Below are positions 21,452 to 60,444 of a stretch of DNA of 64,000 bases, piece after piece. This stretch comes from Candidatus Daviesbacteria bacterium (GTDB lineage Bacteria > Patescibacteriota > Microgenomatia > Daviesbacterales > UBA10151). Numbering within the stretch: position 1 is the stretch's first letter; each line of letters starts with the position of its first letter. The notes beneath the pieces were generated by a model. It saw only the letters and a list, made by a program, of their open reading frames with translations. It did not search any database and was not told where the DNA came from. The position numbers and the translations under genes were made by a program. The DNA lies in contig JAQTZF010000001.1 in the NCBI GenBank assembly GCA_028687915.1, positions 290,634 through 354,633 of the forward strand. The letters are read 5' to 3'.

Positions 21452-22402
21452 ATGTTAGCTAAGATAATATCTGGAGCAAATGTGGGGATAGAATCTGTTG
21501 CTGTAACGGTGGAAATTGATATTGCTTCACAAGGTTTACCTTCTTTTACTCTGGTAGGATTGGCTGATAGGGCAGTTGAAGAATCAAGAGAAAGAGTGAG
21601 GTCTGCTTTAAAAAATACTGGTGCTGATTTTCCAGCCAAAAGAATTACTGTTAATTTAGCACCAGCTGATTTACCAAAAGTTGGGCCTGCTTTTGATTTA
21701 CCAATAGCTTTAGGATTGCTTATTGCTTCTGGACAGGTGGTAGGGGATTTATCAGACACTATGTTGGTGGGTGAATTATCTCTTGATGGAAGTTTAAGGT
21801 CTACCAATGGGATTTTGGCTTTTACAATTTTAGCTAAAAGTTTGGGTTTAAAAAGAATTTTTGTTCCCCTTGAGAATGCAATTGAAGCAGCAGTGGTGGA
21901 AGGAATAGAAGTATATGGATTTGAAAATTTACTGGAAGTTTTTAATTTCTTAAGTGGAAATTTAGAAAAATCACAACAACCTCTAACAGATTTAGATAGA
22001 AGTGATGATTTATTATATGAATATGATTTTAAAGAAATTAAAGGCCAAAATCAGGCTAAAAGAGCACTTGAAATTGCAGCAGCTGGTGGACATAATGTTA
22101 TATTAAAAGGCCCTCCTGGAGCAGGGAAGACGCTTTTGGCGCGTGCTTTTCCATCTATTTTACCAAAGCTTACTAAAGAAGAATCTTTAGAGATTACCAA
22201 AATTTATTCTGTAACAGGTAATTTATCTAAAGGTTCATCACTAATTACCACACGTCCTTTTCGTTCACCTCACCATACTGCCTCCTATGTTGGAATAATC
22301 GGGGGAGGAAATAATATTAAACCAGGTGAAGTGTCTTTAGCTCATAGAGGTGTATTATTTTTGAATGAAGTGTCTGAGTTCTCGAAGAAATTTTGCTTCT
22401 GA
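21452..22402 (+). CDS. comM: ComM/YifB Mg-chelatase-like AAA+ ATPase, N-terminal fragment, truncated by prophage insertion
   Basis: Lon-like N-terminal domain, Walker A GPPGAGKT and start of Walker B (LAHRGVLFL). The last 12 codons (NEVSEFSKKFCF*) are phage-derived. The remainder of the gene resumes at 59830. Confidence 0.85.
   Translation: MLAKIISGANVGIESVAVTVEIDIASQGLPSFTLVGLADRAVEESRERVRSALKNTGADFPAKRITVNLAPADLPKVGPAFDLPIALGLLIASGQVVGDLSDTMLVGELSLDGSLRSTNGILAFTILAKSLGLKRIFVPLENAIEAAVVEGIEVYGFENLLEVFNFLSGNLEKSQQPLTDLDRSDDLLYEYDFKEIKGQNQAKRALEIAAAGGHNVILKGPPGAGKTLLARAFPSILPKLTKEESLEITKIYSVTGNLSKGSSLITTRPFRSPHHTASYVGIIGGGNNIKPGEVSLAHRGVLFLNEVSEFSKKFCF
22358..22390. repeat. attL: core (22358-22369) plus phage-side integrase core-type arm (22370-22390)
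   Basis: The arm GTGTCTGAGTTCTCGAAGAAA is the near-perfect inverted complement of the arm at 59811-59829. Confidence 0.55.
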
Positions 22403-22554
22403 TCTTCTTAAATTTCCTCTTGCAAAATCTAGGTCTATAACCAGTGAAGCATATTTAATTGTCGTTGTCAAGTGCTTTTTTTCTGACCGCAAAAAGATGG
22501 CATAATGACTATGAACAATGAAGCAGTTATCAGTCCTGCCTCTATAATAAAATC

Positions 22555-23637
22555 ATGAGCTATCAAAAATTCCTCTCGGAATATACGGATTTTATCAGGT
22601 ATGACCGAGACCTTTCTGAGCATACTGTCGAGGTGCGGGAGCAATGGCTCAACCGCTTCTTTCGTGATCTCGGCGACAAGGAATTCACTTTTGAAAATAT
22701 CCGCGAGCATCTTCGAAACTATAAAAGGGGCAATCTCTCTCCGAATTACATCAATGTCCTGGTGACCTCTCTCAACTCCTTCCTGCGATTTCTGATCGCT
22801 GAAAAACACCAACCCCTGGAAGACTTCACCTCCAACCTCAACCAACTGCGCCCGAAGAAAAAGTTCGTTTTGTATCAGACGCTTTCCCTGGATGAGATCG
22901 AGAAGCTGATCAGCCCGCCACCGCGCAAAAATAACTACAATGTTTTCGGCAAGCCCCACCTATATCCGAAGTATAAAAAGTGCGATGAGATGTGGTCGCT
23001 GCTGCTGGAATTTCTCGCAAAGACTGGCTGCCGTCCTGGAGAAGTGATCGATCTCAATGTTGGCGATCTTAACTTTGGCACTGACGAGTTTATAATCCGC
23101 GAGACAAAGACCGATGAGCAGCGCATTGTGCCGATCCCTCCTGACATGACCACGAAAATGCGTGAGTGGATTAAAAGCAGAGGCGAGATTCCGCCTTCCT
23201 CTCCACTGTTTATCACCATGCACTTTGCCAGGACTCGTCCTAATTCCAGGATCGGCGAGTCGATGATCAATAAAATCATCAGGGAGAGAGCCAGGAGAGC
23301 TGGGCTGCATGTCGACAAGCGCTTCCACGCCCATAGTTTCCGCCATTCTTTTGTGACTGAAATGCTCCGCCAGGATGTCGCGATCTCAAAGGTGCAGCGC
23401 ATCGTCGGTCACCGCAAAGTCGACACGACCATGATTTACACCCACATGGTTGTCGATGACCTCCGCCAGGCGATGCTGAAACACCCTCTAATTCGCAAAT
23501 CACAAGACCCGCATGCTATTATCGAGAGCGTGAAAGAGGAGATTAAATCATTCAAATTGCACGGCGACGAGCGTTTTGATTACACATTAACCGAGCGGAA
23601 CGACGGCTTCTCCTTCGAGCTATCCCTTAAGAAGTAG
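22555..23637 (+). CDS. tyrosine site-specific integrase (phage integrase family)
   Basis: 360 aa. Catalytic R…HxxR…Y residues lie in HAHSFRHSFVTEMLR…HRKVDTTMIYTHM. An N-terminal SAM-like domain is present. Confidence 0.9.
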   Translation: MSYQKFLSEYTDFIRYDRDLSEHTVEVREQWLNRFFRDLGDKEFTFENIREHLRNYKRGNLSPNYINVLVTSLNSFLRFLIAEKHQPLEDFTSNLNQLRPKKKFVLYQTLSLDEIEKLISPPPRKNNYNVFGKPHLYPKYKKCDEMWSLLLEFLAKTGCRPGEVIDLNVGDLNFGTDEFIIRETKTDEQRIVPIPPDMTTKMREWIKSRGEIPPSSPLFITMHFARTRPNSRIGESMINKIIRERARRAGLHVDKRFHAHSFRHSFVTEMLRQDVAISKVQRIVGHRKVDTTMIYTHMVVDDLRQAMLKHPLIRKSQDPHAIIESVKEEIKSFKLHGDERFDYTLTERNDGFSFELSLKK

Positions 23638-23647
23638 TTGTATAATT

Positions 23648-23950
23648 GTGCATATGGCTGACCACAAAAAAAAGGCTCAGGAGATCGTTGCCCGCGCCTA
23701 TAATTTATCCGATGCTTTCGAAGAAACTGTTGAGGAGCTTTTTAACTACCTGGACAGTGTGAAGGAAAAAAGGCGCAAGCAGTTTGGTGAGGACTCCGAA
23801 CCCTATAAAACATCAGTGCAATATGTCGCGATGTGCCGAGAGATTCTGAAAAAAATCCAGACTAACCACGCCGAGGGGTTTGACCTTCTTCTCGAATTCG
23901 TCAAAGACCACATCGAGAAAGAACAGCTCGAAGACTCTCCGTCTACTTAA
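23648..23950 (+). CDS. hypothetical protein (prophage; possible moron or lysogeny gene)
   Basis: 100-aa ORF co-directional with the integrase and GC-rich. No motif recognized. Confidence 0.4.
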   Translation: MHMADHKKKAQEIVARAYNLSDAFEETVEELFNYLDSVKEKRRKQFGEDSEPYKTSVQYVAMCREILKKIQTNHAEGFDLLLEFVKDHIEKEQLEDSPST

Positions 23951-24194
23951 AAAATACCCTGAATACGACATCAATAATGATCGTCACTATGGCAACTGCC
24001 ACGCTGATTTTTACAGTGATGGTATTTACCTGGATTTTCAAATTGTCTACATCGCACTGCAGTGTATGCAGGTGGTTGTTTTTGATCTCACCCAGGTCTT
24101 TGTTGATATAGTTCAAGCCATTGTCGACGCGCTCCTCCAGCTTGGCGACTCTTTCGATGATTTGTGTGTTGGTTGTTCCGTTATCGTTTGCCAT
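23943..24194 (-). CDS. small lysis-associated membrane protein (coiled coil plus C-terminal TM)
   Basis: 83 aa, last gene of the late operon. The C-terminus ISVAVAIVTIIIDVVF is hydrophobic. Confidence 0.4.
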   Translation of the reverse strand: MANDNGTTNTQIIERVAKLEERVDNGLNYINKDLGEIKNNHLHTLQCDVDNLKIQVNTITVKISVAVAIVTIIIDVVFRVFFK

Positions 24195-24206
24195 AGTGAT
24201 TTCGCA

Positions 24207-24479
24207 TTAAAACGGCAATTTATCAACTAGAGCGGTTTTGTCTTCCGATCCGAAGATGTCTCTGAGTAACTTCCCGATGGCGTTCACCCCCGCGACTAAT
24301 CCAGAAAGCAGGAACGGATATGCGAGTAGGGTTTTGAAATTCTCCCAGCTGGCGAATGCTTCCGCTCCTGTATTGATCAGCACTATCGATCCAGTCACAA
24401 AAAAGGCTGAGACAAAAACTCTCAGAAACCTCCAGGCGACTTTCTTCCACTCAGGGTATAGTTGATCTAATGGGTTCAT
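24207..24479 (-). CDS. holin-like protein (2 TM)
   Basis: 90 aa with two TM helices. Lies directly downstream of the endolysin gene with a 4-nt overlap. Confidence 0.45.
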   Translation of the reverse strand: MNPLDQLYPEWKKVAWRFLRVFVSAFFVTGSIVLINTGAEAFASWENFKTLLAYPFLLSGLVAGVNAIGKLLRDIFGSEDKTALVDKLPF

Positions 24480-25588
24480 GCTTTCTTCACCTCCTTTCTA
24501 TTGATTAAATTTTTAATGAAGTTGGTCAATGCTGTGATCACCGCGTTTATGATGCTGGTTTTTACTGGGAGCTGACCCTTCTGACAGGCTTCGAGCTGGC
24601 TTTTGGCAGTTTGAGCCTCTAATAGCGCCCGACCTTTGGCTTTGTTGGCTTCGTCGAGTTCCCCCTCCAGCACCTTCACTCTACCCTCGGCTACCTTGAC
24701 GATTTCAGGCAGGTTTTTGATGTCCTTTTTAAGCGCATCGAGCAGGTCTTTATAATACTTTTCCTTCTCTAGCACTAGCTTTTCGAGTCTGCTAACCTGT
24801 TCGGTTCGGTTGGTGATTTCAGTGTTTGCCACATCGAGGTCTTTTTGCTTCTCTCCCAGCTGGTTTTTCAGGTCAGTTTCCCTCGATTTATACCCTGCAG
24901 CCACACTCTTAACTTTGTCGCTGGGGGTAGTGTTTGGGTCGTCAGTTATCTCAAGAATCTTGAGAGTCTCTGCCCATTTTGTAGCGCTGGCAACTATCTG
25001 CTCGTATTTTGTGCGCCATTCTGGAGTGTTTGGCACAAGGCAACCCTCGGCTGCATCGATTGCTGCAGGCGTTCCTTCATACCAACACCAGGAATAAATC
25101 AATTTCTGAGCTGTCACGCCCCAGCTGGTGATCCTTTTTTCCGCTCCGTCCCAGGGGTCTTGCACTATAAAGTCGTCGCCGTCATAACCGATAGCCAGAA
25201 TCCAGTGTTCGTCGAATGCACTGGTTGAAGGGATCGTGTCGATCTGTAAAAAGACTGGGAAGCCTTTGTCGATTGCTCCTCTGATCTGGTTCATTTGATC
25301 CTGGGTAAGTGCCTGGCTGTTTGACCACTTGCCTGAGTATTTGAGACCCGCAAACAATTTCGGGATCGCTCCCCAGATTAAGAGATTGCCGTCCTGGTAT
25401 CCGCCGTTTTGAGTCATTTTTTCGTTTAAGGTGAGCGGTGTCTCTTTGAATCCGTAATAGCTCACTGACATGGTGGCGCAGTTTAAGAGGCATCCCACTC
25501 CTCCGATTGTGCCTTTTGTCCCCATCGGGCTGTTCTTCCAGCGGGGATCGTTCTGACAATATGTGACTGGTAGTGTTAGTTTTTTCAT
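24476..25588 (-). CDS. endolysin candidate with N-terminal C39-like (papain-fold) peptidase domain and C-terminal coiled coil
   Basis: Cys nucleophile context GGVGCLLNCATM and His context HWILAIGYDGDDFIVQDPW (peptidase_C39_2 / DUF3335-like). About 140 C-terminal residues of heptad-rich coiled coil end in an amphipathic helix. Confidence 0.6.
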   Translation of the reverse strand: MKKLTLPVTYCQNDPRWKNSPMGTKGTIGGVGCLLNCATMSVSYYGFKETPLTLNEKMTQNGGYQDGNLLIWGAIPKLFAGLKYSGKWSNSQALTQDQMNQIRGAIDKGFPVFLQIDTIPSTSAFDEHWILAIGYDGDDFIVQDPWDGAEKRITSWGVTAQKLIYSWCWYEGTPAAIDAAEGCLVPNTPEWRTKYEQIVASATKWAETLKILEITDDPNTTPSDKVKSVAAGYKSRETDLKNQLGEKQKDLDVANTEITNRTEQVSRLEKLVLEKEKYYKDLLDALKKDIKNLPEIVKVAEGRVKVLEGELDEANKAKGRALLEAQTAKSQLEACQKGQLPVKTSIINAVITALTNFIKNLINRKEVKKA

Positions 25589-25592
25589 AGGT

Positions 25593-28500
25593 TTATTTGA
25601 AAAGTCCTAGCGGATCATTTCCTTTTGTTGCCCCGCCTCCTGTCGGGAACATTTGCCCCATTGTTGGTTTAGCGGAAGGCGCTGGTGCGCTGCCTCCCAT
25701 CAAACCCAGTGGGTCATTCGCTCTCGGTGCGCTTCCGCCAGGTTTTAACACAGGATTTTTAGTGCCTGCTGGCGCACTGAGTTTGAGTAATCGCTGCATG
25801 TCGCTCGCGTCGAACATCACACTCTTTTGAAAGCTCACCGCTTCTTTTGGATCGTCGGCGAACAGGAGAGGAGTTATCTGCGGGACAATGAGTTTGGCTT
25901 TGTTATTCCAGTCGGTTGCGATCTTTTGGGCTTGCGGTAAATTGCCTGCAGTCAGTGCTTTTTGCACCTGGATTCTGGCGGTGTTGTATCCGACAGTGGT
26001 ATCGTCCAGGAGTTGCCAGGCTGCATTCTCTTTTGCTCCTCCCTGGGTTCTGACGAATCTCTGCAGCGACGCACCAACTAGATCGCTCGGATTGAAGACA
26101 TACTTGCTGCTTGAACCGAATAACCCAGTGGCGATGTGGGCGATTCTCATCGGACTCCATCCGACGGCTCGTCCCAGCATTACTGCCAGAGGTTCTGTCT
26201 TCTCGTTATATTGCTCGGTAGGTGCGACCTTCTCCAATTTTCTCGGAATGATCGGGAATCCTGTAAATAGATTCAAGTTTGTGACTTCTTCGACCAGGGT
26301 TTTCAATGCTGGCGGTAGCGCTCCTCCCAGGAAAGCACTGCCTGATAATTCGCCGTCTCTACTGAAAGGAACTGGTGAGAGTTGGCTTGTCCATTCGACT
26401 GCCAATTTCAGCAGGTTGGCTGGCTCTTGCTTCCTCACATACTCAAAGGCGTATTCGAGCGGATTGTAGAAAATAGCACCCATGTCTCCTTTGGGAATCT
26501 GCAGCACTTTCGGCACTGTTTTGCCTTCCTTGTCTTTTTCAGAGCCTAAAATGATAATGAAATACTGATCCTTTGCCCACTGCGGGATGTCGTCCCAGAG
26601 GTCTTCGTGATTCATGATGTTATAGAAATAGGTGGCGACACCTGGCATGACAATGAGCGCCATTGCTTTGAGTGCCGACTTGAGCGGGTTTTCTTTGAAA
26701 GCATCTTTGACTCTGAGGAGTCCTTGCCAGCGGGCATTCACGAAAGGAATCCACTGGTTGATGATCCTCATCTCTTTGCCTGCTTTTGCAAAATCGACTG
26801 TGGCATTTCGGGCTTCGAAAGCTGCCTCGGTTGTCGTCACTCCTGGCTTGGCAATACCTTTTTTGTAGATGCCCAGTCTCGGCGCGAGTTCTACCGCTTC
26901 AGAGAAGTTGCTAATAAGCTGGAAGGGATTGATGATCGCCTTTGTTTTCGTCCACCAGGATGGCGTGAACAATTCTTTTGAAACAACTGACAGCTGCTTC
27001 GCGTTGCCGATATAACCGCCGTATCCTCCCTGGTTTTTCAAGAAATCATCATAGGCTTTCGACTCCCATTTGAATGCTCCCTTGAAGCCATCCATGAGTC
27101 CTGAGAGCCAGTTGACTGGACTGAAGCCCCACTTCGTCACTATCGATGCGGTCTGGAAGTCGCGGATCGCGTTGGTCAGGGTAAAAGGAATATAGAAGGT
27201 GGTCACACCCGCCTTGAATGCTCTGGTTGATGCCATTGCCAGTTTGCCCATGACGCCTGCCTCAGCTGGACTGAGTGCGTGCATCGCTTCGGACAGCTCT
27301 TTTGGCACAGCCCAGCGCGTCACCTTGCCGTTTATGAAGGCACTGATGGTGTCCCAGTCCTTCGGCGCTTTGGCGTCTTTGTAGAGATATTTTATAAATT
27401 CTTTTGCTTCGGGATGACTCTTTCTCAGATCGATCAATTTCCTGGCGACTTCGTTTCTCTTGGTCAGGTTGATTGCTTTGCTGAGGTTGTCGACGATTGA
27501 TTCAAAAGGATCGCGAATCTGTTTTTCCGTTCCTTTTAATCCCTGAATGACACCCTGTTTGCTGACAGAGAATGTCTCGCTGCCTGCCTGCATCTGGTCT
27601 GCTTGTTTAGCATCAGGTAGGTAGTCGAGGACATGGAATGGCATCCAGCTCTTATTTTTCTCGACAACGGCATTGAATGCCTTTTTGCTGATCAGTCCTG
27701 TGTCTCTCATCGGTTCGAGGATGTTTCGGATCGACCAATTCTGGATCGCTTGCCCTGCCTGTTCGAACTGCTTATAAACTTTCTCGCCGACTTTTTCTTT
27801 CAATTCAGTGAGAGCTTTTTCTCCTGTTTCTTTGGTCACACCTGCTGGGTTGTCGAAGCCTCTGTCGGCTCTTTCGATGGCACGCTGCGCCAGGACATAG
27901 CGGGTGAAGTCTGGTCGGAATTTTCTCACTGGTGAGACGATCTTTTGCAGATCACGGAAAGCGACCTCAATCGTTCCGAATCTGCCCGCGTAGAGTCGCG
28001 CTGCAATATAAGGACTGGAATCAATATCGATGGGGAGTCCCTGCAGTTTGCTGACTGTTTCCTCGAATTGCTTCATAGGAGCATAGCGGTCAGTGAAGTT
28101 TCTGCTAAACCAGGGCTTGACCCCTTTGAGCCAGTCTGCCACTGATGCAGCTTTTCCGAGTTTGCCGACCATTTTATCGATCTGCTCCAGGGCGCTACCT
28201 TCTGGCGGTGGAGGAGCTTGAGTGATCGGTTCTTCTTTTGGTGGTCGTGGTGCGCTTCCTTTCGGAGGAGTCGCCATTTCGTCAGCCCGCATCTTTTTGG
28301 GTGCTTTGACTTTGCCCTGCATTCTCTCCTGGAATTTCTTCAGGTAGGCTTCTTTGTCTTTCATGATTTCGCCAACACTGGGGACACGCTCGGCATCCAG
28401 GAGTTCTTTTTCTTCTGGTCGATATTTAAGTCTGATTTCTTCTGCCTTCGCTGCTTTTTGCTCCTGGGCAGTGAATTGCTGCGCGATCTGATCATCGATC

Positions 28501-30764: not shown

Positions 30765-30820
30765 AGTATTTTTAATCCCTTCTTTCGATGGGCTTCATGA
30801 CAGGCTAAATACTGAGGAGG

Positions 30821-33447: not shown

Positions 33448-33451
33448 AGTT

Positions 33452-47442: not shown

Positions 47443-47539
47443 ATTTGTATTTCACCCCCTTTCTATATTCTCAATTTATAATGAGATTGATTAGGCATAT
47501 TATAGCAAAAAAACCACTTAACGGAAGATATTTATCCCT

Positions 47540-48532: not shown

Positions 48533-48640
48533 TCGTGTTCCTGATTTTGCCTGGATTGTAGGCTATTTATAACAATATATCAATCCAACCGATCTAGCCC
48601 CTTGCCTGGGGGCTAGACCTTAAACACCCGCGACTCTGGT

Positions 48641-50865: not shown

Positions 50866-51059
50866 AGTTATTCTGTTTTGTCTCCAGCCCTAAGACCTTC
50901 TCTCAAAGCATTCAGAGACGCTTTAGCATCGCGATCAGCCTGCTCTTTCCGTTCTTTCTTGCTGCCATTATCAAGCATCTTGTCCAGGCGGGCGAGCTGT
51001 TTATCCGAAACTTCCTTTGATTTTGAATGATTTAATAACATACTATTACTTTACATTAT

Positions 51060-51287
51060 CTACATTCCCTTGTCAAGTCCTTCGGTTTCTGCAGGTTGTT
51101 TTTCTGGTTCTGGTTGCGGGGGAAGTTTGCCAAAGCGTCGCTCATATTCCCGCTGATCATGGTAGGTCATTGCTGCCCACCGACCATTGCGAAGTTTAAT
51201 CGGATCGCGGTGTTCATTGCTGCGCCAGCATCCCTCCTTGCAGCTTTCGAGGGTAGGATATGTCCTGAAGAAGTGTTTTTGTTGCAT
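51060..51287 (-). CDS. hypothetical small protein
   Basis: 75-aa ORF. Confidence 0.3.
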   Translation of the reverse strand: MQQKHFFRTYPTLESCKEGCWRSNEHRDPIKLRNGRWAAMTYHDQREYERRFGKLPPQPEPEKQPAETEGLDKGM

Positions 51288-51420
51288 ATACTTTTTAATT
51301 TTTAACTTGGTGGCTGGGTCTGGTTAGTTTCCCCGAATTAAGGCAATCTCCTATTACGCAGGAGACGACTGGAGACTGCCAGTCCAGAGTCTAACCCCTG
51401 CTTTTGCCAGTCGCCACCAC

Positions 51421-51642
51421 CTATATTTCAATACCTGTCGGCTTCGGCGTATCTCCCGCGCTTCCACCATCCTCTGGATCGATGCGTTTCTGCTCGATCA
51501 TCTCTTTGCGGAAGGGTTTGCCGTCGCTGATAAAGATAACGACTCTACCGAATTTCACTCGGCGAATGTCTTCAAGGATAGCCAGCTCTGCTTTGGTTAC
51601 CTTGACCTCTTTGACTGGTATGAATTTATTTGTTTGGCTCAT
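51421..51642 (-). CDS. hypothetical small protein (YezD/DUF2292-like?)
   Basis: 73 aa. Overlaps the terminase stop. Confidence 0.35.
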   Translation of the reverse strand: MSQTNKFIPVKEVKVTKAELAILEDIRRVKFGRVVIFISDGKPFRKEMIEQKRIDPEDGGSAGDTPKPTGIEI

Positions 51643-53185: not shown

Positions 53186-53756
53186 AGTGGTTTTTGATCA
53201 ACTGATCAATCTCTTTGCCGATTTCGTTTTCCTCCGAAGTAGGAGGCAGCTGCTCTTTCTCATCGATATAATGAGAGACGATAGTTTTCCCAGTAGCTTC
53301 GCCGAACTCTGTCCTGTGCATTTCCCAGAGGTATTTGACATCGAGGACAGTCACATCGGTTTTCTTTGCCTCCCTGCGCAGTTTTTTCAATTTCGAAACA
53401 AGAACATCAGTGACCAGGAATTTTCGCTGCAATCGGAATCGGTCAGTCTCTTGCTTCAGATCGGTGAGTTCTTCCGTGAGCTGCAATTCTGTCCTATCAA
53501 CCCAGCGATATTTTCTCGACCACCTTTCAATCGTTGACTCTGCGGGTTTCTTGCCCAGTCGACTTGTGAATTCCGCCCCCATATCGCCATCGTCCTGCCC
53601 CCAGTTTCTGAGAACCTTTCTTAGGCTGCCGACTTCCACATACAAAAGCCATGCACAATACTGCTGCTCAGTTTCACCTGGCATTTTTTCTGTCGTCAGT
53701 GTCGGCTTTATTGCTGGCACTATTTTCTTTTTAATTTTGGTTTGTTTTTTAGCCAT
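53157..53756 (-). CDS. terminase small subunit candidate
   Basis: 199 aa, basic/helical. Overlaps the large-subunit start. Confidence 0.45.
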   Translation of the reverse strand: MAKKQTKIKKKIVPAIKPTLTTEKMPGETEQQYCAWLLYVEVGSLRKVLRNWGQDDGDMGAEFTSRLGKKPAESTIERWSRKYRWVDRTELQLTEELTDLKQETDRFRLQRKFLVTDVLVSKLKKLRREAKKTDVTVLDVKYLWEMHRTEFGEATGKTIVSHYIDEKEQLPPTSEENEIGKEIDQLIKNHYGRKTSKQK

Positions 53757-53928
53757 ATTTTCTTAAAAACTTTGTGATCATCCGCACCAGCCAAAGCCAG
53801 GATCGCTCCCACCAGCTGAGTCCTTCCTTTGGCAGCGGTTTGATTTCGCGTTTGCTCTGCTCACTCTCAAGGTGAGGTGAGATATAGTCTTCCTTCAATA
53901 GTGGTGGTATAGGTTTAAGGTCTATCAT
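53753..53928 (-). CDS. hypothetical micro-protein (about 59 aa)
   Basis: Self-called. TAA overlaps the terS ATG (ATGGCTAA). Coordinates are +/-1 because of the local display inconsistency. Confidence 0.3.
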
Positions 53929-54076
53929 GGCTTGCTTGTTGAATCCGCTTTAACTCCCGCGCGATTTCGTCCCGCTGCGGGGAAGTGAGCGCTCGATAAT
54001 TTCTTTTGACCACCTCGAAAGGTAGCCCTAGACTGACTGCGAGTTTTCGCAGCAATTTAACTTTCTTTTGGTTCAT
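53925..54076 (-). CDS. hypothetical micro-protein (about 50 aa)
   Basis: Self-called. ATGA overlap with the downstream ORF. Coordinates +/-1. Confidence 0.3.
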
Positions 54077-54254
54077 GTTTGATTCCGATTTTGTAACCTG
54101 CTGCTTGGGCGCATTCTTTGCACACCCTCGCTTTGTATTTGACCTCTGGCATTCTCACGCCATTGACTATCGGAGTTTCTGTCATAACCACGCTGTAGGA
54201 CTTGTAAAGCCCGACGACTTTATCGCACCCCACGCATCGCACTACTTGTTTCAC
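54057..54254 (-). CDS. small zinc-ribbon protein (two CxxC pairs)
   Basis: 65 aa with CVGC…CKEC. Confidence 0.4.
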   Translation of the reverse strand: MKQVVRCVGCDKVVGLYKSYSVVMTETPIVNGVRMPEVKYKARVCKECAQAAGYKIGIKHEPKES

Positions 54255-54502
54255 GGATTCTCACCTCCTTTTAGTGTTTTAATTTCTAACCAGTTTTCAA
54301 TATCGCAGTTGTCTCCAGCTTCATTGCGATCAATCGCCTGAGTGATTTCTTCCTGAATCTGTTTTTGTGTGTGTCCGTCAATTTCTACCCAGTGGTTTTT
54401 TAGATAATCGACTACCAATGAAACCGCACCAGTGCGCCTTCCCAGCGCGTAGCGGAATGCAAAAAATAGAATGTCGATGTCTTCTTTGTTTAGTTTTGTC
54501 AT
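54251..54502 (-). CDS. hypothetical protein
   Basis: Trimmed to Met MTKLNK…, whose ATG overlaps the upstream gene's TGA. The track ORF extends to 54676. Confidence 0.4.
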   Translation of the reverse strand: MTKLNKEDIDILFFAFRYALGRRTGAVSLVVDYLKNHWVEIDGHTQKQIQEEITQAIDRNEAGDNCDIENWLEIKTLKGGENP

Positions 54503-55002
54503 GGTTGTATAACCTCCCCCTCGACTGGCTGATCGCCAGAACCCAGCATTTTGAATCCTGACTCGTTTAATGTTTCGAATAAGGTCTGTCCGTTTTTGGT
54601 CACCATGTAGGGCAGGAAAATCTGCTCCATTTTGACCATCTTGGTTTGCAGGATCGCCATCTGTGCATCGATCCACACCTTCACAATCCGCCAGGCAACA
54701 CGCAGCGCCTGGTCTTCGTTGGCATATCCGCTGCGGATTTTGCCCTGTCGCACTTGTTCTTCCAGGACTCGAAGGACTGGCTGTTTATCGCAGGGCAATT
54801 TGATTCCCAGCTCTTTGCCATTCACATCGATGCTGAAAGAGAGTGCCTCGATCTGTCCCGCCTTGTTGTAGTTCGACAAGATTGACTTCGCACCATTGAC
54901 CGCCAGTGTTTGCTGAATTTCATTGATCGTTTTATAAGCCTCGATCTCGGTGGTGTAATTCAATAAACCTTTACCCATTGTCTTTTTCCTCCTCTTTGGC
55001 AA
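54499..55002 (-). CDS. hypothetical phage protein
   Basis: 167-aa ORF. Confidence 0.45.
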   Translation of the reverse strand: MPKRRKKTMGKGLLNYTTEIEAYKTINEIQQTLAVNGAKSILSNYNKAGQIEALSFSIDVNGKELGIKLPCDKQPVLRVLEEQVRQGKIRSGYANEDQALRVAWRIVKVWIDAQMAILQTKMVKMEQIFLPYMVTKNGQTLFETLNESGFKMLGSGDQPVEGEVIQP

Positions 55003-55231
55003 GCAGCTCTTTGGTAATTTCTAAAATCTTGAGCTGTTTGACGCGGTTGGCTTCGGACTGCTCGATGGCTTCTTTTTTCCTCTGCTTTTCGACACCATAA
55101 GGAGTCGGAATCTTTCGGACGATCTGCTCGTCGTCGAGACTCTTAAGGTAGAGGATGTCGATCTCCTGGATGATCAGCTCTCGCTCCAGGCTGTCGACCA
55201 TATCTGTTAGGTGTTGCTTTCTAGTTTTCAT
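54971..55231 (-). CDS. hypothetical coiled-coil protein
   Basis: 86-aa ORF. Confidence 0.4.
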   Translation of the reverse strand: MKTRKQHLTDMVDSLERELIIQEIDILYLKSLDDEQIVRKIPTPYGVEKQRKKEAIEQSEANRVKQLKILEITKELLAKEEEKDNG

Positions 55232-55237
55232 AATTTT

Positions 55238-55396
55238 TTATCGTTCAATTTCTCCAGCAGCTTCTTTTTTAGTAAATGTTCCCTCGTCAACCTCGATCTG
55301 CTTTTTGGTTGCGAGTTCGATCAGGACATAAACCGCCCGACCTTTGGCATCCTTGCGTTTGCCTTCAAAGTGGAACTTTGGCTTTTTATCTGACAT
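55238..55396 (-). CDS. hypothetical micro-protein (52 aa)
   Basis: Self-called. Strong RBS AGGAGGTG 7 nt upstream of the ATG. Confidence 0.4.
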   Translation of the reverse strand: MSDKKPKFHFEGKRKDAKGRAVYVLIELATKKQIEVDEGTFTKKEAAGEIER

Positions 55397-55766
55397 ATTT
55401 CTTCACCTCCTTTATTGGTTTGATTTTTATAATGACTTTGTTTTCCTTCGTGCCATTGACCGCCTCGGTAGTGACCCGCCTGACAAAACGAGTGTCGTCT
55501 TCTTCGATCAGTTTGTATTTCAAGCCGTCGATGTAGAGCTTGCTGGCGATGTTATCGCTGTCGCGGTGCAGGTTGTTTTTGTAGTAGGCAATGATTGTGA
55601 TGTCGACTGGCTTCGTAAAAATCTTTCTCTCGCGCGGGAGAGCAGCTGCGACGAAACTGTGAATCTCCTGGGCAAGCTCCTGGCGTCGTGACCAGTGCTT
55701 CTGCTCATAGAGAGCATTCCAGCTGACTGCCTGGTGATCTGTTATTGTGAGTGTGACTTGTTTCAT
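55386..55766 (-). CDS. RusA-like Holliday junction resolvase
   Basis: 126 aa with a D-x-D-N acidic catalytic motif (HRDSDNIASKLYIDGL) in the characteristic position for RusA-family crossover junction endodeoxyribonucleases. Confidence 0.55.
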   Translation of the reverse strand: MKQVTLTITDHQAVSWNALYEQKHWSRRQELAQEIHSFVAAALPRERKIFTKPVDITIIAYYKNNLHRDSDNIASKLYIDGLKYKLIEEDDTRFVRRVTTEAVNGTKENKVIIKIKPIKEVKKYVR

Positions 55767-56101
55767 ATAATTGATAGTTGCTCCTGCACTGCAGGCTTTG
55801 CTTCAACTGGTAACTTCTTTTTTCTTTCCCTTTTTTCCTTCCTTTCGAATGCCGACATCGGGACGATGGCGACCTTCTTTCCTTGATGGTTTGTCCAGAC
55901 AGAGTCATGCTCTGTCGCGATCCGCAATGCTTCAGCGCTTTCAATCTCGTATTTCACCTTGCGGTTTTTGCCCAGGTAGCAGCAGAAGCGATCCACTTTT
56001 CCCAGGGCTTTGATCGAGAGTCCGATGCAGAGGGATTGTTTGCCTTCCTCGAATTGCCCCTCCCGACACATAAAAGGATGCTGGACTGTGTGGACTTTCA
56101 T
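55763..56101 (-). CDS. hypothetical protein
   Basis: 112-aa ORF. Confidence 0.4.
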   Translation of the reverse strand: MKVHTVQHPFMCREGQFEEGKQSLCIGLSIKALGKVDRFCCYLGKNRKVKYEIESAEALRIATEHDSVWTNHQGKKVAIVPMSAFERKEKRERKKKLPVEAKPAVQEQLSII

Positions 56102-56259
56102 GCCCTGCCTCCTTTCTTCTCTGGCTCTTTTTTCTCTCTGCCGTCAGCCAGGACGACCTCTTTTTCTCCTGGCACTTGGATGCTCACTTTGCAGTGATAT
56201 TTTTCCGCCAGTCTCTGGTTGGTCTTCATAAAATTGTTGAGTGATTTTTGTAGTGACAT
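56098..56259 (-). CDS. hypothetical micro-protein (53 aa)
   Basis: Self-called. ATGA overlap with the downstream gene. No strong RBS. Confidence 0.25.
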   Translation of the reverse strand: MSLQKSLNNFMKTNQRLAEKYHCKVSIQVPGEKEVVLADGREKKEPEKKGGRA

Positions 56260-56261
56260 AG

Positions 56262-56978
56262 TTATTTTGCGAGCGCCCTTTCGTTTGCTCTGATTAAAAT
56301 TTCAATGACTTCTTTGTTTGTGCCAGTCGCTGTCTCCAGGAGTTTCTTCAGCTCATCGATGCTCTTTTGCATCTGCTCTTTGGTTTTGTTGGCTGGTAGG
56401 TAGTCAGTTAGGTTTTCCATGTTTTTTATAAATTCCCGATCCTGAAGATCGGTAACCACCGCTTGAACCGCTGCCACCCAGTTGGTCGTGTTGCAGCCTG
56501 CACTTGGGGGGCAATACACATTCGCCAAATCCTCGACTCGATCTGTTTGGCGGAATCGACTGTAATAAGATTTCGTTGCAATTCCTTCGGCGACGGACTG
56601 GCAGCTGGCTTCAAGTGAGGAATAGTGAGTTTTGCAGCTGTTCCAGCCGAAGGGGTTGCCTCCGCATGCGTTCTTACCAAAGCTGCTCTCAATGTTTGTG
56701 ATGCCGACCAGTAAATACGGATCGACATTGTTATCACTGCCACAGTCCACGAAGACATGACTCTGACCAGTGAGTGGGCTGCTTTCCTCAGACAGGCGCT
56801 CAGCCACAATCGCAATGCGAGGATCGGGTTCAGGGGTAGGGGTCGGTGAAGTAATCGGCTGAGCCGTCTGAGTGTTTTTCGATATTGGCGATGTGCGGTA
56901 TTTTTCATATACGATTTTGGCTGTGATGCCCGCGACTGCCAGTAAAATAAATAGGATTAGAATTAGTTTTTTTCTCAT
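56262..56978 (-). CDS. secreted protein, possible lysozyme-like (SLT-type) transglycosylase
   Basis: Signal peptide/TM. LVGITNIESSFG…GGNPFGW resembles the E-S catalytic motif region of lytic transglycosylase family 1. The assignment is weak. Confidence 0.4.
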   Translation of the reverse strand: MRKKLILILFILLAVAGITAKIVYEKYRTSPISKNTQTAQPITSPTPTPEPDPRIAIVAERLSEESSPLTGQSHVFVDCGSDNNVDPYLLVGITNIESSFGKNACGGNPFGWNSCKTHYSSLEASCQSVAEGIATKSYYSRFRQTDRVEDLANVYCPPSAGCNTTNWVAAVQAVVTDLQDREFIKNMENLTDYLPANKTKEQMQKSIDELKKLLETATGTNKEVIEILIRANERALAK

Positions 56979-58009
56979 AGTTGTGCATGCTTTCCTTGTG
57001 CGCCTGCCTTCCCTGGCTCGTTGGCGAAGCGCCAGTAAAATAACTTCTCTCGATCTCGGATGTTTTCCGCGTCCTTGCAGTAGCTGAGAGCTGTCTGAAG
57101 CCGACCTTGTTTGCCGTTTTTACAAGCCAGTTGAATGTGTCTGAAGAAATTGCGGGAGGGAGTGCCTTTTAAGCCCAGCTCCTCCCAGTAGCGCAGCGCT
57201 TCTACCTGGAATTCATGGGTGATTTTGGTGCTGGGACTCTGAGTATCAAAATGAGACTGGTGTTTTTTTAAGACATCGCCGATACTGGAGACTGTGTTTT
57301 TCTTTTCTGGTAGGGGGTGCTGGTAAGTGCCTTCGCAGTGTGTCCCGCCTAGTGGATCGGGATCAGTGCAGCCGTTGCAGTTGCCATTCGGAGTGCGGTT
57401 GTAGGGTTCTTTTAAGGCTAACTCTTTGGGTTTATCCCCAGAGTTATCCACATTTTTATCAATTACGGAGGCTTCAGCCTCAACAGTGTTTTTACTTTGT
57501 TTATTTATACTTTGTCTATTTATCTTTTGTCCTTGCTCTTTAGCTAACCCCCCCCTTGTTCTTTGACAACCCCCCTCGTTCTTCTTTGATGATCCCCCCC
57601 AGGTAAAAACAGGGTAGATATAGCGATGAGTCCCTGATTTATCGCGCTCAACTTCGATCCTGATTTTGCCCTTTGCAGCGAGTTCTCTTAATGGACGATT
57701 GACTGATTGCTCTGCCACTCCGATGGTGCGACCCAGGTATTTATTCGTGGCGTAGCAGAAGCCAGTCTGACGACTCAATGCGATGATCCCGCCATAGAGA
57801 ATCTTTGCCAGCTGGGAAAGGTCTTGACTCTGGAGAATTTCAATCGGAATGACGACAAAAAGACTGGACTCGCTGCGCCCGACATCCAGCCCCGCTTTAT
57901 AAGTTTGCTGAACCATGTCGAGGACTGCCGTCAGCTGCTCGCCTTTGAAAAGAGGGAGGTATTTATCGACTAACTCGTTTGGCACTGTCTGGTTGACTGG
58001 TTTTTTCAT
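56975..58009 (-). CDS. replication initiation / replisome-organizer-like protein (winged HTH)
   Basis: The N-terminal wHTH motif LSQLAKILYGGIIALSRQTGFCYATNKYLGRTIGVAEQSVNRPLRELAAKGKI is typical of phage DnaD/replication-initiator N-domains. Confidence 0.45.
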   Translation of the reverse strand: MKKPVNQTVPNELVDKYLPLFKGEQLTAVLDMVQQTYKAGLDVGRSESSLFVVIPIEILQSQDLSQLAKILYGGIIALSRQTGFCYATNKYLGRTIGVAEQSVNRPLRELAAKGKIRIEVERDKSGTHRYIYPVFTWGGSSKKNEGGCQRTRGGLAKEQGQKINRQSINKQSKNTVEAEASVIDKNVDNSGDKPKELALKEPYNRTPNGNCNGCTDPDPLGGTHCEGTYQHPLPEKKNTVSSIGDVLKKHQSHFDTQSPSTKITHEFQVEALRYWEELGLKGTPSRNFFRHIQLACKNGKQGRLQTALSYCKDAENIRDREKLFYWRFANEPGKAGAQGKHAQL

Positions 58010-59136
58010 TCCGTTTTCCCTCCTTTCCTGTTTTTCAAAAATTGATCAAACTTATTTCCTGGTTTTTGTGGGTAGTAGAGAGCCTGACATTCCTTTGAGC
58101 AGAAGCCATTCTCTCCAGCGACTGAAGGATCGACTGGTTTTTCGTGGCATTGCGCACACATCCTGGGTTCTTCTTTCTTTTCCTCTGCTTCGACTGGCTC
58201 TGCTTCCTGGACTGGGGCAGTTTGTGCTGCTTGCTCGGCAACAGTTGCTTCGCCGTTACCTTTGCCAGCGATTCTTTTGGGAGGATTGCTTTCACCAACT
58301 ACTTCGAAGGCTTCCTGGAGTTTTTCCGTTAGCTGATCGATCTGCACTCCTGTCAGCTCAGTGATCGATTCGACCTGATAAAGTTTGGCGATTGCCTGGT
58401 GCAGTCGTGTCTCATCAAAACCTCTGGGGTGTGCGACGGCATGGAGCTTCTTGATCTGGTTTACTCTGACTGGGTCTTGCGCTTTGGTGGTGGGTGCTGG
58501 CTCAGCATCCGAGACTTCCTCCAGGAAGATGTCGCTTGCCATCGTCGCGGTTCTTACTGCAGCAACAAGCGCCCGCTTTTGTGCCATCGATTGGATGGTG
58601 TTGGCGTCATCAGCGCTTTCTTCTGGGGAATTTTTAACTTTGAGATAGGTATTAGTGTATCCGCGCTCCTGCTTGGTGAATTTCGAAACAAAGTTTGCTT
58701 TCTGATCAGCTGTCGCGAAGCGCTCGGCGACTGTGGTGTAGAGATATTTTTTCTCCCTGGAATTGCAGCTTCTCTCTGCCTCTCCTGCAGGGATTGTCTT
58801 AGCGTCGTATATTTCGATCTGTCCGTCGACGACTCTGGTGAGGGGAATGTTTCGACTGAGTTTGCACAGGTAGCGATAATAGAAAAAGCCTTTCTCCCAG
58901 TCTTCGACTTCTTTGGTCAATTCAAACTCTGGGGCAAGCCCGAAGAATTTCGCGAGTTTCTCAGCTCCTGGCTGCAGCAGTGTCTTTTTATTCGTCCCTG
59001 GGATCACACCAAAGTCGACCCCTTCTTTCATCTGGGACTTGACCAGCTTTCTGATGTCCTTCTTCTCAGTGCCGAATTGCTCCAGCTCCTGGGCGGGTTG
59101 GACTATGGTTAGGCTTTGCTCTTTATTTTCCGTCAT
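58006..59136 (-). CDS. putative single-strand annealing/recombination protein with C-terminal Cys4 zinc ribbon
   Basis: 376 aa. The N-domain motif DFGVIPGTNKKTLLQPGAEKL is recombinase-like. The C-terminus holds CAQCH…CSKEC. Family assignment (ERF/Rad52-like) is uncertain. Confidence 0.35.
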   Translation of the reverse strand: MTENKEQSLTIVQPAQELEQFGTEKKDIRKLVKSQMKEGVDFGVIPGTNKKTLLQPGAEKLAKFFGLAPEFELTKEVEDWEKGFFYYRYLCKLSRNIPLTRVVDGQIEIYDAKTIPAGEAERSCNSREKKYLYTTVAERFATADQKANFVSKFTKQERGYTNTYLKVKNSPEESADDANTIQSMAQKRALVAAVRTATMASDIFLEEVSDAEPAPTTKAQDPVRVNQIKKLHAVAHPRGFDETRLHQAIAKLYQVESITELTGVQIDQLTEKLQEAFEVVGESNPPKRIAGKGNGEATVAEQAAQTAPVQEAEPVEAEEKKEEPRMCAQCHEKPVDPSVAGENGFCSKECQALYYPQKPGNKFDQFLKNRKGGKTE

Positions 59137-59371
59137 ATTTTTGAATGCAACTTATAGGTGAGCCGTTATAAAAGCACTGACACTTTGCCAGCCATTCAGC
59201 ATTTCCGCTGACTTTAGCGCTCCTGCAGTTCATGCGATCCTGGTTTTCGAGAGTGGTATCCAAACCAGTGACGAATGCGTAGCTCATAACCAGTGCGAAA
59301 ATAACCATCAGAATCAATGAGCCGATGCCTAACTTCTCCCTGGGTTGTCGTCTTTGCGCGTAGTCGATCAT
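59123..59371 (-). CDS. small membrane protein
   Basis: 82 aa with one TM helix and Cys-rich periplasmic tail. Confidence 0.4.
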   Translation of the reverse strand: MIDYAQRRQPREKLGIGSLILMVIFALVMSYAFVTGLDTTLENQDRMNCRSAKVSGNAEWLAKCQCFYNGSPISCIQKYDGK

Positions 59372-59739
59372 TGCTGCCCCTCCTTTCCGAAATCGATAAT
59401 CCCTAATTTCTCCATGTCTTCCGCCAACTCCTCGATGATCTGGTAAACACGCTCCCTGGACTTGACGCCGTATTTTTCGCCCAGTTCTTCAAGGGTTAAA
59501 AACAATCGGCGATAGTCGTTGAGGATATTGCGGTCACGCTCCCAGTTTTTGGAGATGTGAGAACAGAGAATTCTGTCTATGGTTTTGGCATCTTTGCCAG
59601 GGTGGAGGTCAACAATCTGCTGCAGGGAAAGTCCTGCGAAGTAATCTCTTAAAATGTCTTTGTTAGCTTCCCAACTAAAAAATCGCTTGACATTTCGTCT
59701 TCTTTGCGTTTTAATGTGGTGCAATCTTTGGGCAGTCAT
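59368..59739 (-). CDS. sigma-70 region-4-like HTH regulator (first gene of the rightward-to-leftward phage transcription unit)
   Basis: 123 aa. LTLEELGEKYGVKSRERVYQI resembles a sigma region 4 / LuxR-type HTH. Confidence 0.4.
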   Translation of the reverse strand: MTAQRLHHIKTQRRRNVKRFFSWEANKDILRDYFAGLSLQQIVDLHPGKDAKTIDRILCSHISKNWERDRNILNDYRRLFLTLEELGEKYGVKSRERVYQIIEELAEDMEKLGIIDFGKEGQQ

Positions 59740-59810
59740 ATGGTTTTGACGACCCTAGATTTTTGATAATTTAGAGAGATTTTTAGGAAGGGTTAGAAGC
59801 CTTTTTTATT

Positions 59811-59841
59811 TTTCTTTCGAGAACTCTCGTTTCTGGATGAA
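59811..59841. repeat. attR: phage-side integrase core-type arm (59811-59829) plus core (59830-59841)
   Basis: TTTCTTTCGAGAACTCTCG is the inverted complement of the 22370-22390 arm. The core TTTCTGGATGAA re-enters the comM frame. Confidence 0.55.
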
Positions 59842-60444
59842 TTACCAGAATTTCCAAGACAGGTTTTAGAAGCACTGAGGCAACCAATAGAAGATAGAAA
59901 AGTTTCCATATCCCGTGCTAATGGAACTTTAACTTTTCCTTGCCAGTTTATTTTACTTGCTGCCCATAACCCCTGTCCTTGTGGGTTTTTGGGAAGTCAT
60001 AAGAAAAGTTGTTCTTGTAATCCTGGGCAAATCTCAAGATATAAAAAGAAAATCTCCGGACCCCTTTTGGACAGAATTGATATTCATTTAGATATTCCAG
60101 CAGTGGAGGTTGAAAAATTAACAGGAGAAGATATTCCAGAAGAATCAAAAACTATCAGGGATAGGGTAGAGAATGCCCGAAAAATACAGCAAAAAAGATT
60201 TAAGGGCAGTAGTGTATTAACTAATTCTGAAATGAATAACATACAAATAAAGCAGTTTTGTCAGATTACCAGAGAAGCTTTGGAATTATTAAAACTAGCA
60301 ATTTCACAGATGAACTTATCAGCCAGAAGTTATTACCGGGTTTTAAAGCTTAGCAGAACAATTGCTGATTTAGCAAATTCTGAAGGAATAATGCCTGAAC
60401 ATATTGCAGAAGCTTTAACTTATAGATACAGAGAAGAAAACTAA
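59830..60444 (+). CDS. comM: ComM/YifB C-terminal fragment (Walker B, sensor and C-terminal Mg-chelatase domain)
   Basis: Frame opens at about 59800 and reads FLDELPEFPRQVLEALRQPIED…AAHNPCPCG… . The track lists only the distal part, from internal TTG at 59989. Confidence 0.8.
   Translation, partial: FLDELPEFPRQVLEALRQPIEDRKVSISRANGTLTFPCQFILLAAHNPCPCGFLGSHKKSCSCNPGQISRYKKKISGPLLDRIDIHLDIPAVEVEKLTGEDIPEESKTIRDRVENARKIQQKRFKGSSVLTNSEMNNIQIKQFCQITREALELLKLAISQMNLSARSYYRVLKLSRTIADLANSEGIMPEHIAEALTYRYREEN

Follow-up and report, generated by a model that had tools for sequence, protein, structure and literature searches.

A prophage in the Walker-B codons of comM in Candidatus Daviesbacteria and other Microgenomates

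The 64,000-nucleotide stretch of DNA analysed here (the window: Candidatus Daviesbacteria bacterium, assembly GCA_028687915.1, contig JAQTZF010000001.1, positions 290,634 to 354,633) carries a comM gene that is interrupted, in the codons for the Walker-B motif, by a prophage of 37,472 bp (22364..59835, with the crossover placed after TG). Very probably this is a temperate tailed phage that was integrated into comM of Ca. Daviesbacteria by its own tyrosine integrase, through conservative site-specific recombination. An earlier examination of the DNA (the sequence-only reading) had proposed that the Walker-B region of comM is occupied by a ~37.5-kb prophage with a tyrosine integrase near its left junction; the insert indeed has the hallmark genes of a tailed phage, and the integrase gene begins 153 bp past the stop codon of the truncated open reading frame (ORF) and ~190 bp from the crossover. 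The named matches of the rejoined ComM are to Microgenomates, Candidatus Daviesbacteria or Patescibacteria, and the host is thus a bacterium of the Candidate Phyla Radiation (CPR; Ca. Daviesbacteria, Patescibacteria) and not a proteobacterium.

The gene is split between GVLFL and DELPEF. Its host-derived 5' fragment (21452..22363, plus strand; residues 1–304) is 92% identical to the same residues of the intact orthologues in three relatives (L003–L005) and holds the ChlI/Lon-like domain, the Walker A sequence GPPGAGKT and the hydrophobic Walker B strand GVLFL; the 3' fragment (59836..60444, plus strand; residues 305–506), also host-derived and 91–93% identical to L003–L005, holds the Walker B DE, the sensor/arginine-finger region, a zinc-ribbon-like CPC motif and Mg_chelatase_C. 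Rejoined, the two give a ComM of 506 aa that matches the intact 506-aa orthologues with 92% identity over 100% of its length and aligns with the solved ComM helicase (PDB 8rxd) over residues 9–502. As the split segment, GVLFLDELPEF, is identical in that structure, the target is the Walker-B motif of the AAA+ core. The coordinates and translations that the sequence-only reading had given for the two pieces proved exact: 21452–22402 encodes a ComM/YifB N-terminal fragment ending in ...LAHRGVLFLNEVSEFSKKFCF (that is, …SLAHRGVLFLNEVSEFSKKFCF) and a stop, and 59830–60444 encodes FLDELPEFPRQVLEALRQPIED…YREEN, or FLDELPEFPRQ...YREEN, and a stop. The 5' ORF reads on into phage DNA, where it acquires the tail NEVSEFSKKFCF before its stop codon at 22400–22402, just past Walker B and without the sensor, the arginine-finger region or the C-terminal domain. 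By frame analysis, the frame of the 3' fragment opens at 59797, after an in-frame stop at 59794, and its first start candidate is a TTG at 59989, 53 codons beyond the junction, with none upstream of it. Since the 5' ORF is truncated and the 3' fragment lacks a start codon, the lysogen should lack ComM; to judge from these reading frames, with all that follows Walker B lost and the 3' fragment startless, it is very probably comM-null, as had been supposed, and the scar-free junctions mean that excision could restore the gene.

The unoccupied site comes from related genomes, where the sequence-only reading had suggested that it be sought. In L003–L005 comM is intact and its uninterrupted DNA reads GTATTATTTTTGGATGAATTACCAGAATTT, and alignment to these 92%-identical orthologues defines a clean attB; the gene order is kept on both sides of comM between the window and these relatives (RecA…DUF1003-HisKA-comM…DUF4446-DUF3048-SecD). 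The two host arms of the window rebuild GTATTATTTTTGGATGAATTACCAGAATTT with zero bases lost or gained, so the insertion is clean. An empty site from the same species was also sought, by exact-protein matching of the flanking host genes, but this found the same sample only, and the empty site is therefore taken from the 92%-identical relatives. The 12-mer cores named at the two junctions (22358–22369 and 59830–59841) are where they were said to be, as a repeat matching at 10 of 12 positions, which is not significant by itself and is validated only by other genomes: compared by k-mers and by local alignment, the two junctions have no direct repeat above 8 bp in common, and do have an inverted match of 15/16 nt (22376–22390 against 59813–59828). 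From the comparative sequence evidence, the junctions are certain.

Could the junctions have been made by the assembler, with a free phage contig wrongly joined into a CPR chromosome through a short shared sequence? The genome is metagenome-assembled and the step in composition is very large at both junctions, where the guanine-plus-cytosine (GC) fraction moves between ~0.34 and ~0.48 and then stays at 0.46–0.50 throughout the insert. Nevertheless, such an artefact is extremely improbable. The shared stretch, an imperfect 12-mer, is not long enough to lead an assembler astray; both junctions fall at one codon and rebuild a perfect 506-aa ComM; and SRR22315507, assembled independently by Logan, gives the same sequence as the window for 14,536 bp (16817–31352), across attL. 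The same junction is seen in at least four other genomes by attL, one of them a closed chromosome, the same attR is seen in three further contigs, and the attP of a free relative, L016, equals the joined ends of the window's prophage. A phage protein identical to the window's (P0135) is, moreover, annotated in NCBI for a Ca. Daviesbacteria metagenome-assembled genome (MAG) on a contig of 1,096,538 bp. A chimeric contig, raised by the sequence-only reading as a way in which it might be wrong, is thus ruled out by the comparative junctions and by two assemblies that agree across attL. So is its other alternative, a comM natively split by unrelated DNA, as relatives have at this point either an intact comM or the same phage lineage.

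The attachment sites can be compared across attB of L003–L005, attP of L016, five attL (window, L006, L010, L013, L053) and four attR (window, L050, L051, L052), and all fit a B-O-P' / P-O-B' arrangement. attB is the stretch TTT TTG GAY GAR, which encodes F-L-D-E of the Walker-B motif, within the near-universal GVLFLDELPEF, in the contexts TTTTTGGATGAA and …GGTGTATTATTTTTGGATGAATTACCAGAATTTCC…. The integrase gene and the first early gene flank attP, which is made of two 11-bp inverted arms, TTCGAG(A/G)A(C/G)TC and GAGT(T/C)(C/T)TCG(A/G)A, set 21 bp apart and enclosing TTTCTG GAY GAR. In L016 the two arms surround TTTCTGGAYGAR, within a 278-bp intergenic region that contains …TTTCGAGGACTC TCATTTCTGGACGAGTTGTCG GAGTCTTCGAAGG…, and joining the right and left ends of the window's prophage gives …TTTCGAGAACTC TCGTTTCTG(A/G)ATGAAGTGTCT GAGTTCTCGAAGAAA…, with the junction …TTCGAGAACTCTCGTTTCTG[A/G]ATGAAGTGTCTGAGTTCTCGAA…, which matches it. 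The right arm, GAGTTCTCGAA, now lies at the window's attL (22376..22386, plus strand) as an inverted match to 59816–59826, and is conserved at attL of L006, L010, L013 and L053 and in attP of L016; the left arm, TTCGAGAACTC, now at attR (59816..59826, plus strand; inverted match to 22376–22386), is conserved as TTCGAG(A/G)A(C/G)TC at attR of L050, L051 and L052 and in the same attP. From their arrangement, the right arm is probably the core-type integrase binding site C' and the left arm C.

Where the strands are exchanged can be narrowed by the few positions at which phage and host differ, as the match between the attP and attB cores is imperfect (10–11 of 12) and their difference at the Leu codon, TTG or CTG, is synonymous. 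The window's attL core, TTTTTGAATGAA (22358..22369, plus strand), has the host-type T at 22361 and a phage-type or mutant A at 22364, and its attR core, TTTCTGGATGAA (59830..59841, plus strand), has the phage-type C at 59833 and the host-type G at 59836. The host version TTTTTG is found in 5/5 attL and the phage version TTTCTG in 4/4 attR and in attP; as this T/C difference (22361/59833) sorts host to attL and phage to attR, the exchange must lie 3' of it, and since host and phage part again after GAYGAR, it is confined to TG-GAYGAR (22362–22369 and 59834–59841). In attL the predicted interval is thus 22362–22369 (TG AATGAA). The inverted arms are symmetrical about the A of GAY, and a 7-bp overlap TG(G/A)AYGA centred on this dyad axis would occupy the same interval. 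Two lysogens are polymorphic inside it (A/G between attL and attR of the window, C/T between L013 and L051), and in both attL carries the non-host allele, as would be seen if strands are exchanged at the left edge or if a heteroduplex overlap segregates. In the window, where two assemblies agree, attL has AAT (Asn), giving LNE instead of LDE, while attL of L006, L010, L013 and L053 has GAY; AAT may be the allele that this phage has in its attP, or may have arisen by mutation after integration.

The sequence-only reading had taken the segment that follows the left junction for a phage-encoded mimic of FLDELPEF. That it is derived from the phage is correct, but protein mimicry is not the reason for the likeness. 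Across the phage lineage the DNA of the core and right arm is conserved as GAYGAR NTR TCN GAGTTCTCG, whereas the tails that are encoded past the core vary in both sequence and length (DEVSEFS, DELSEFSKAS, DELSEFSKVSCF and NEVSEFSKKFCF, each followed by a stop). As the DNA is conserved and the peptide is not, this is a recombination site and not a selected protein mimic; by its sequence, the attP core with the right arm is a recombination site that partly resembles the B' side of attB. We also considered, and set aside, an RNA hairpin formed by the inverted arms: the arms vary among relatives and strict pairing is not kept, as in L016 and L051/L013 one change is compensated and another is not, and the arm dyad coincides with the crossover, as fits protein-binding sites.

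The same codon has been used repeatedly. Integrases of this family are rare: 14 proteins reach E<=1e-20 in a set of 5.8 billion. A source name, that of a Cloacimonetes MAG, is attached to one of the 14, and no member is named as proteobacterial. Each integrated homologue with a readable context lies directly downstream of a ComM N-fragment cut at the same codon: L006–L009 from groundwater metagenomes (integrase 91% identical), L010/L011 (83%), L012/L013 (70%) and L053, the closed chromosome of Ca. Woesebacteria Ch104b (CP055307.1; 84%). The ComM N-fragments of L006–L009, L012/L013 and L053 are 52–61% identical to the Daviesbacteria protein, and the Woesebacteria prophage is syntenic with that of the window, with 68–84% amino-acid identity over seven matching genes. 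attR is present in three further contigs (L050, L051, L052), where the C-terminal half of ComM resumes at FLDE(L/F/M)PEF directly past the phage end. Together, at least five host genomes by attL, the window included, and two further contigs known by attR only share the codon, with ComM proteins 52–92% identical to that of the window's host. On these sequence comparisons, the Walker-B site of comM is the canonical attB of the phage lineage across several divergent Microgenomates. In L016 the integrase gene adjoins a homologue of the right-end gene, and the gene order is the expected circular permutation; from this order L016 is an unintegrated relative, of the lineage though not this exact phage.

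Some side observations concern these relatives. L016 came from a search of viral and metagenome collections in which the 376-aa right-end protein was the query and the other matches were mostly irrelevant and short. Distant homologues of the same protein (29–45% identity; P0146–P0238) occur on many contigs of 38–42 kb, whose length would suit complete genomes of a wider phage family, and a few contigs with such homologues are labelled as Omnitrophica or Phycisphaerae MAGs. The only close relative in IMG/VR is L058 (IMGVR_UViG_3300009285_016361), a predicted provirus whose limit falls within the integrase, at residue 98, so that automated prediction overlooked both the att site and the comM junction. 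Searched for directly in IMG/VR, the consensus arm-plus-core pattern had 0 matches; the generic inverted-repeat pattern (CGAGAACTC N8-30 GAGTTCTCG) matched 23 contigs, which we rejected as chance palindromes, with zero related integrases and a distant terminase large subunit (TerL; ~22–27% identity) in a few. The record of L012 (also L054; CAYPXO010000001.1, GCA_964414895.1) is titled 'uncultured Pseudomonadales bacterium', a label that is probably wrong: the flanking host DNA is at 37% GC, shows a CPR-like gene order (miaA, AI-2E transporter, comM) and encodes a ComM N-fragment that shares 65% identity with CPR ComMs.

By its gene content the insert appears to be a complete and intact temperate tailed phage with an SU10-type capsid/portal module. 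Terminase, portal, HK97-fold major capsid protein, tail and lysis genes are all present, and all prophage genes are on the minus strand except those for the integrase and a 100-aa ORF. The integrase (360 aa; 22555..23637, plus strand) matches PF00589 (1.6e-31), PF02899 (3.4e-5) and phrog_1 (4.6e-44); its N-terminal SAM-like core-binding domain scores 24.5 bits with PF02899 against a cut-off of 22.3, and the catalytic residues R160, K185, H260, R263, H286 and Y295 are invariant in a 10-sequence alignment. The 100-aa ORF 3' of it (23648..23950, plus strand) has homologues of 49–85% identity in L016, L053 and L058 and no Pfam or PHROG match, and is possibly a lysogeny regulator. The structural genes include the major capsid protein of SU10 type (41210..42397; PF17236 4.8e-41, phrog_1328), the portal protein (44971..46839; weak PF23899 and PF16510 matches, phrog_332, phrog_156, phrog_1216), the gpA-type ATPase of the terminase large subunit (51626–53185; phrog_675 1e-92, PF05876 1.8e-19) and the small subunit (53157–53756; phrog_6299), all on the minus strand. 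The tail/adsorption module (30821..38250, minus strand) encodes a 364-aa protein, a tail fibre (32128–33447; phrog_892 7.3e-25), 485-aa and 226-aa proteins and an 862-aa protein (35662–38250) with a C-terminal N-acetylmuramoyl-L-alanine amidase (Amidase_2, PF01510 3.5e-19). At the distal end of the late operon (23943..25588, minus strand) are two small ORFs of 83 and 90 aa and a 370-aa Peptidase_C39_2-like cysteine peptidase (PF13529 6.6e-13) with a possible cell-wall peptidase or lysis role, all conserved in relatives.

Next to these lies the gene for a large polyvalent protein of 1723 aa, LPD38 (25593..30764, minus strand; PF18857 3.3e-23, phrog_9854 3.8e-66), whose tblastn matches in relatives are split around a variable central region. 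Across the window, L006, L010, L012, L016 and L053 it ranges from 1723 to 1999 aa with conserved ends, and a central segment (~residues 590–720 of the window protein) has little or no similarity among relatives, which suggests, as far as these alignments go, a swappable module. Between portal and terminase, a cargo-like block (47540..50514, minus strand) holds a secreted-type staphylococcal (SNase-type) nuclease (47540–48532; PF00565 5e-22), a 245-aa protein and a YceG/MltG-like endolytic transglycosylase (49375–50514; PF02618 2.9e-67); the nuclease and transglycosylase genes are phage-like in composition, have no homologues among the partial relatives compared, and may be cargo specific to the window phage. 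A 64-aa MerR/HTH_17 protein of excisionase-family fold (50671..50865, minus strand; PF13411 3.7e-12, PF12728 3e-11), with a homologue in L050, is a candidate excisionase or regulator. In the early/replication module (55386..59739, minus strand) are a RusA-like resolvase (55386–55766), a replication initiator with HTH_36 (56975–58009), the conserved 376-aa early protein (58006–59136), an 82-aa ORF and, adjoining attR, a 123-aa helix-turn-helix protein (59368–59739; weak Sigma70_r4 match); three conserved early genes stop 90 bp short of the right junction. The insert has no phage tRNAs, Rfam gave nothing beyond the host tRNA-Pro, no transposase is among the annotated ORFs, and the scanned ORFs included no recognisable tape-measure protein or DNA polymerase, only the replication initiator. 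Scans of both junctions for promoters and terminators gave no more than would be expected by chance. The nearest deposited phages reach at most 26% identity in TerL and 28.5% in the integrase, and by these comparisons the phage is of an undescribed lineage.

The neighbourhood of comM varies between genomes apart from the prophage. In the window a 426-aa HtrA-like trypsin/PDZ protease (20072–21352, minus strand) sits between the histidine kinase and comM, a position that is empty in L003–L005, where the kinase abuts comM directly. Just 3' of comM (60441–61854) are three small unannotated ORFs in the window, and likewise in L005, while L003 and L004 have a Gp49/HTH toxin-antitoxin pair, NUDIX and PHP there (L003 11564–14907).

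The composition of the phage sets it apart from its hosts. The prophage has 47.7% GC against 33.6% in the host flanks, and its genes have 53% GC at third codon positions (GC3) against 21.5% in host genes; the lineage is at 46–48% GC in every lysogen (window, L006, L012, L052, L053), with host flanks at 33.6%, 37–42% and 39%. Temperate phages are usually near their host in GC or poorer. The difference might stem from recent spread out of GC-richer Microgenomates, from selection on the phage DNA, or from a main host outside the CPR. The last could be taken to mean that the lineage replicates mainly in a GC-richer organism, such as a bacterial partner of epibiotic CPR cells, with CPR lysogeny as a second compartment, the CPR cells being reached through the universal Walker-B sequence of ComM. 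We consider this very unlikely. The attP core does use codons of middling GC (CTG, GAC, GAG), and a 2026 study found that a prophage of a CPR bacterium's host binds and weakly infects the CPR epibiont (PMC13578794); given that crossing to a CPR cell, cross-compartment phages are no longer purely hypothetical. The gap of ~30 points in GC3 poses a puzzle about the host range or the mutational regime of CPR phages.

On the explanation that we favour, integration by the phage's own integrase, the enzyme would recombine attP with the comM attB, exchanging strands within ~7 bp (TG-GAY-GA) centred on the arm dyad, and the inverted arms would act as core-type binding sites. The most conserved segment of a dispensable, near-universal gene would provide a usable attB in hosts whose ComM is 52–61% identical. 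Without ComM helicase activity the lysogen would be impaired in the homologous integration of transforming DNA, with DNA uptake untouched; the loss of ComM would shield the prophage from deletion by transformation; and comM would become whole again on excision, in which the 64-aa MerR/HTH_17 protein might assist. Several points weigh against this. No CI-type repressor was recognised in the Pfam and PHROG annotation of the ORFs, and the assignment of an excisionase leans on the generic HTH_17/MerR fold. A phage 14 GC points above its host is unusual for a long-adapted temperate phage. The AAT in the window's attL, if it lies in the overlap, implies a heterologous overlap or a later mutation, and the 21-bp spacing of the arms exceeds a canonical core of two binding sites and a 6–8-bp overlap, so that the binding sites and cleavage positions are ones that we infer. 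The excision activity of this copy is predicted from its sequence alone, and the rationale of protection from curing is an extrapolation to CPR bacteria, by analogy, from Proteobacteria and Firmicutes.

The missing repressor and the lack of an unambiguous excisionase, together with the atypical AAT in the attL core, are also what might be expected of a defective, non-inducible remnant that has permanently inactivated comM. This is unlikely, since all the expected modules are present as long intact ORFs in the order and sizes seen in relatives, TerL has 519 aa in the window and L050 alike, and the 37.5 kb are close to the 38–42-kb contigs that carry homologues of the 376-aa protein; the wholly unameliorated composition, for its part, argues for a recent arrival, and the lineage exists unintegrated in L016. 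At the opposite extreme, excision could be a reversible switch that restores ComM precisely and without lysis, like that of phi10403S and comK in Listeria. An in-frame, scar-free insertion from which excision rebuilds a functional gene would allow this, as would the synonymous Leu codons of attP and attB (TTG/CTG); but scar-free restorability is a property of every site-specific prophage, and active lysogeny of this kind strikes us as distinctly doubtful. A more serious competitor, possible although we lean the other way, is that the site is used simply as a safe harbour, GVLFLDELPEF being very conserved and the gene dispensable, with no selected benefit from the loss of ComM. tRNA genes serve other phages as conserved sites for the same reason. 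The motif is identical from the ComM of Legionella to that of CPR bacteria, is present in 83/120 CPR orthologues with close variants in most others, and is used by a lineage whose hosts have ComM proteins 52–61% identical. Against it stands the convergence of unrelated integrases and transposases on comM and other competence genes across phyla, which has been argued to reflect selection against curing (PMC4774983, PMC12378983). The safe-harbour and anti-curing explanations are not mutually exclusive.

Parts of this picture have precedents. Phage lambda has Int, Xis and a C-O-C' core with inverted core-type sites ~7 bp apart. The present phage resembles it in having its integrase gene beside attP, a short core shared with attB, inverted core-type sites and a candidate small helix-turn-helix excisionase, and differs in that no arm-type sites were recognised, its inverted arms are 21 bp apart and its core match is imperfect (10–11 of 12). 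Listeria phages phi10403S and A118 integrate in comK, and streptococcal prophages in comYC, comFA and ssbB. These too are temperate tailed phages with attB in a competence gene that excision restores, but the gene, the integrase and the host phylum are different here, and regulated active lysogeny is a feature of Listeria. The AbaR islands belong to the Tn7-like transposons, carry transposition genes and are bordered by a short duplication of the target; the present element, unlike these, is a prophage with a tyrosine integrase and attP/attB core recombination, without a transposase or a target-site duplication. AbaR/Tn6019-type islands interrupt comM in A. baumannii and lower transformability (PMC12378983).

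Elements with tyrosine integrases are also known in comM, of the CF65_00446 type in Aggregatibacter actinomycetemcomitans and in A. baumannii, Mannheimia, Francisella and Pseudomonas syringae (Croucher et al. 2016, PMC4774983). The likeness to these gammaproteobacterial elements is in site-specific insertion within comM, at an orthologous position across divergent hosts, and in the predicted loss of ComM-dependent recombination of transforming DNA; the differences are the phylum (CPR), a complete tailed phage and a rare integrase family. Prophages have likewise been reported from CPR bacteria: one of ~27 kb in Roizmanbacteria, called the first for Microgenomates (PMC6509639), and others in Paceibacteria (PMC12455944) and in Saccharibacteria, Absconditabacteria and Gracilibacteria (PMC10746230). 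Like these, the phage here is an integrated tailed phage in an ultra-small, metagenome-derived Patescibacteria genome. In the passages of these papers found by term searches, though, the earlier prophages are predicted by software or by targeting from clustered regularly interspaced short palindromic repeats (CRISPR), with no link to comM or Mg-chelatase, whereas here attL, attR, attB and attP are resolved and the target is conserved across genera. The Roizmanbacteria prophage has a tape-measure protein, in contrast to the SU10-type module and the lack of a recognised tape-measure protein here; and the window lineage is much GC-richer than its hosts, while for the Roizmanbacteria phages the name QZM_A2_Phage_33_19 only suggests ~33% GC. 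A literature search for a link between CPR prophages and comM returned two incidental matches and none that made it, and the Roizmanbacteria paper names neither a chelatase nor comM. What was known already, then, is the disruption of comM by mobile genetic elements in Gammaproteobacteria and the existence of in-silico CPR prophages, and the mechanism is conventional; new are the phage lineage, the host phylum for insertion in comM, the resolved att system and the breadth of hosts.

By September 2026 a cognate CPR phage had yet to be isolated (PMC13578794), and CPR phages are known almost solely from software predictions and CRISPR matches. Here the link between phage and host is certain because the prophage sits in chromosomes, one of them closed. 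With all four att sites resolved and a target that is present in nearly every CPR ComM, the phage offers a firm reference genome for a new Microgenomates phage lineage and a candidate integrase/attP cassette with which DNA might be inserted site-specifically into CPR bacteria that are otherwise intractable. ComM promotes recombination during transformation and is commonly disrupted by mobile genetic elements (PMC4774983, PMC12378983); the loss of comM lowers but does not abolish transformation (Nero et al. 2018, as summarised in PMC12378983), and insertion in comM and other competence genes has been argued to prevent the deletion of such elements by transformation (PMC4774983, PMC12378983). 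The present case is evidence that this conflict of mobile elements with natural transformation, of which these papers list cases in Proteobacteria, streptococci, Bacillus, Listeria and staphylococci (PMC4774983, PMC12378983), also reaches a lineage that is believed to rely on taking up DNA; competence and pilus genes are prevalent in Patescibacteria and have been proposed to serve such uptake (PMC12455944). It is tempting to see a selective rationale in the choice of target, as the removal of ComM would block recombination and leave uptake intact: a phage that takes away the recombination step and spares the uptake genes is what would be expected if uptake is nutritional and it is recombination that threatens the prophage.

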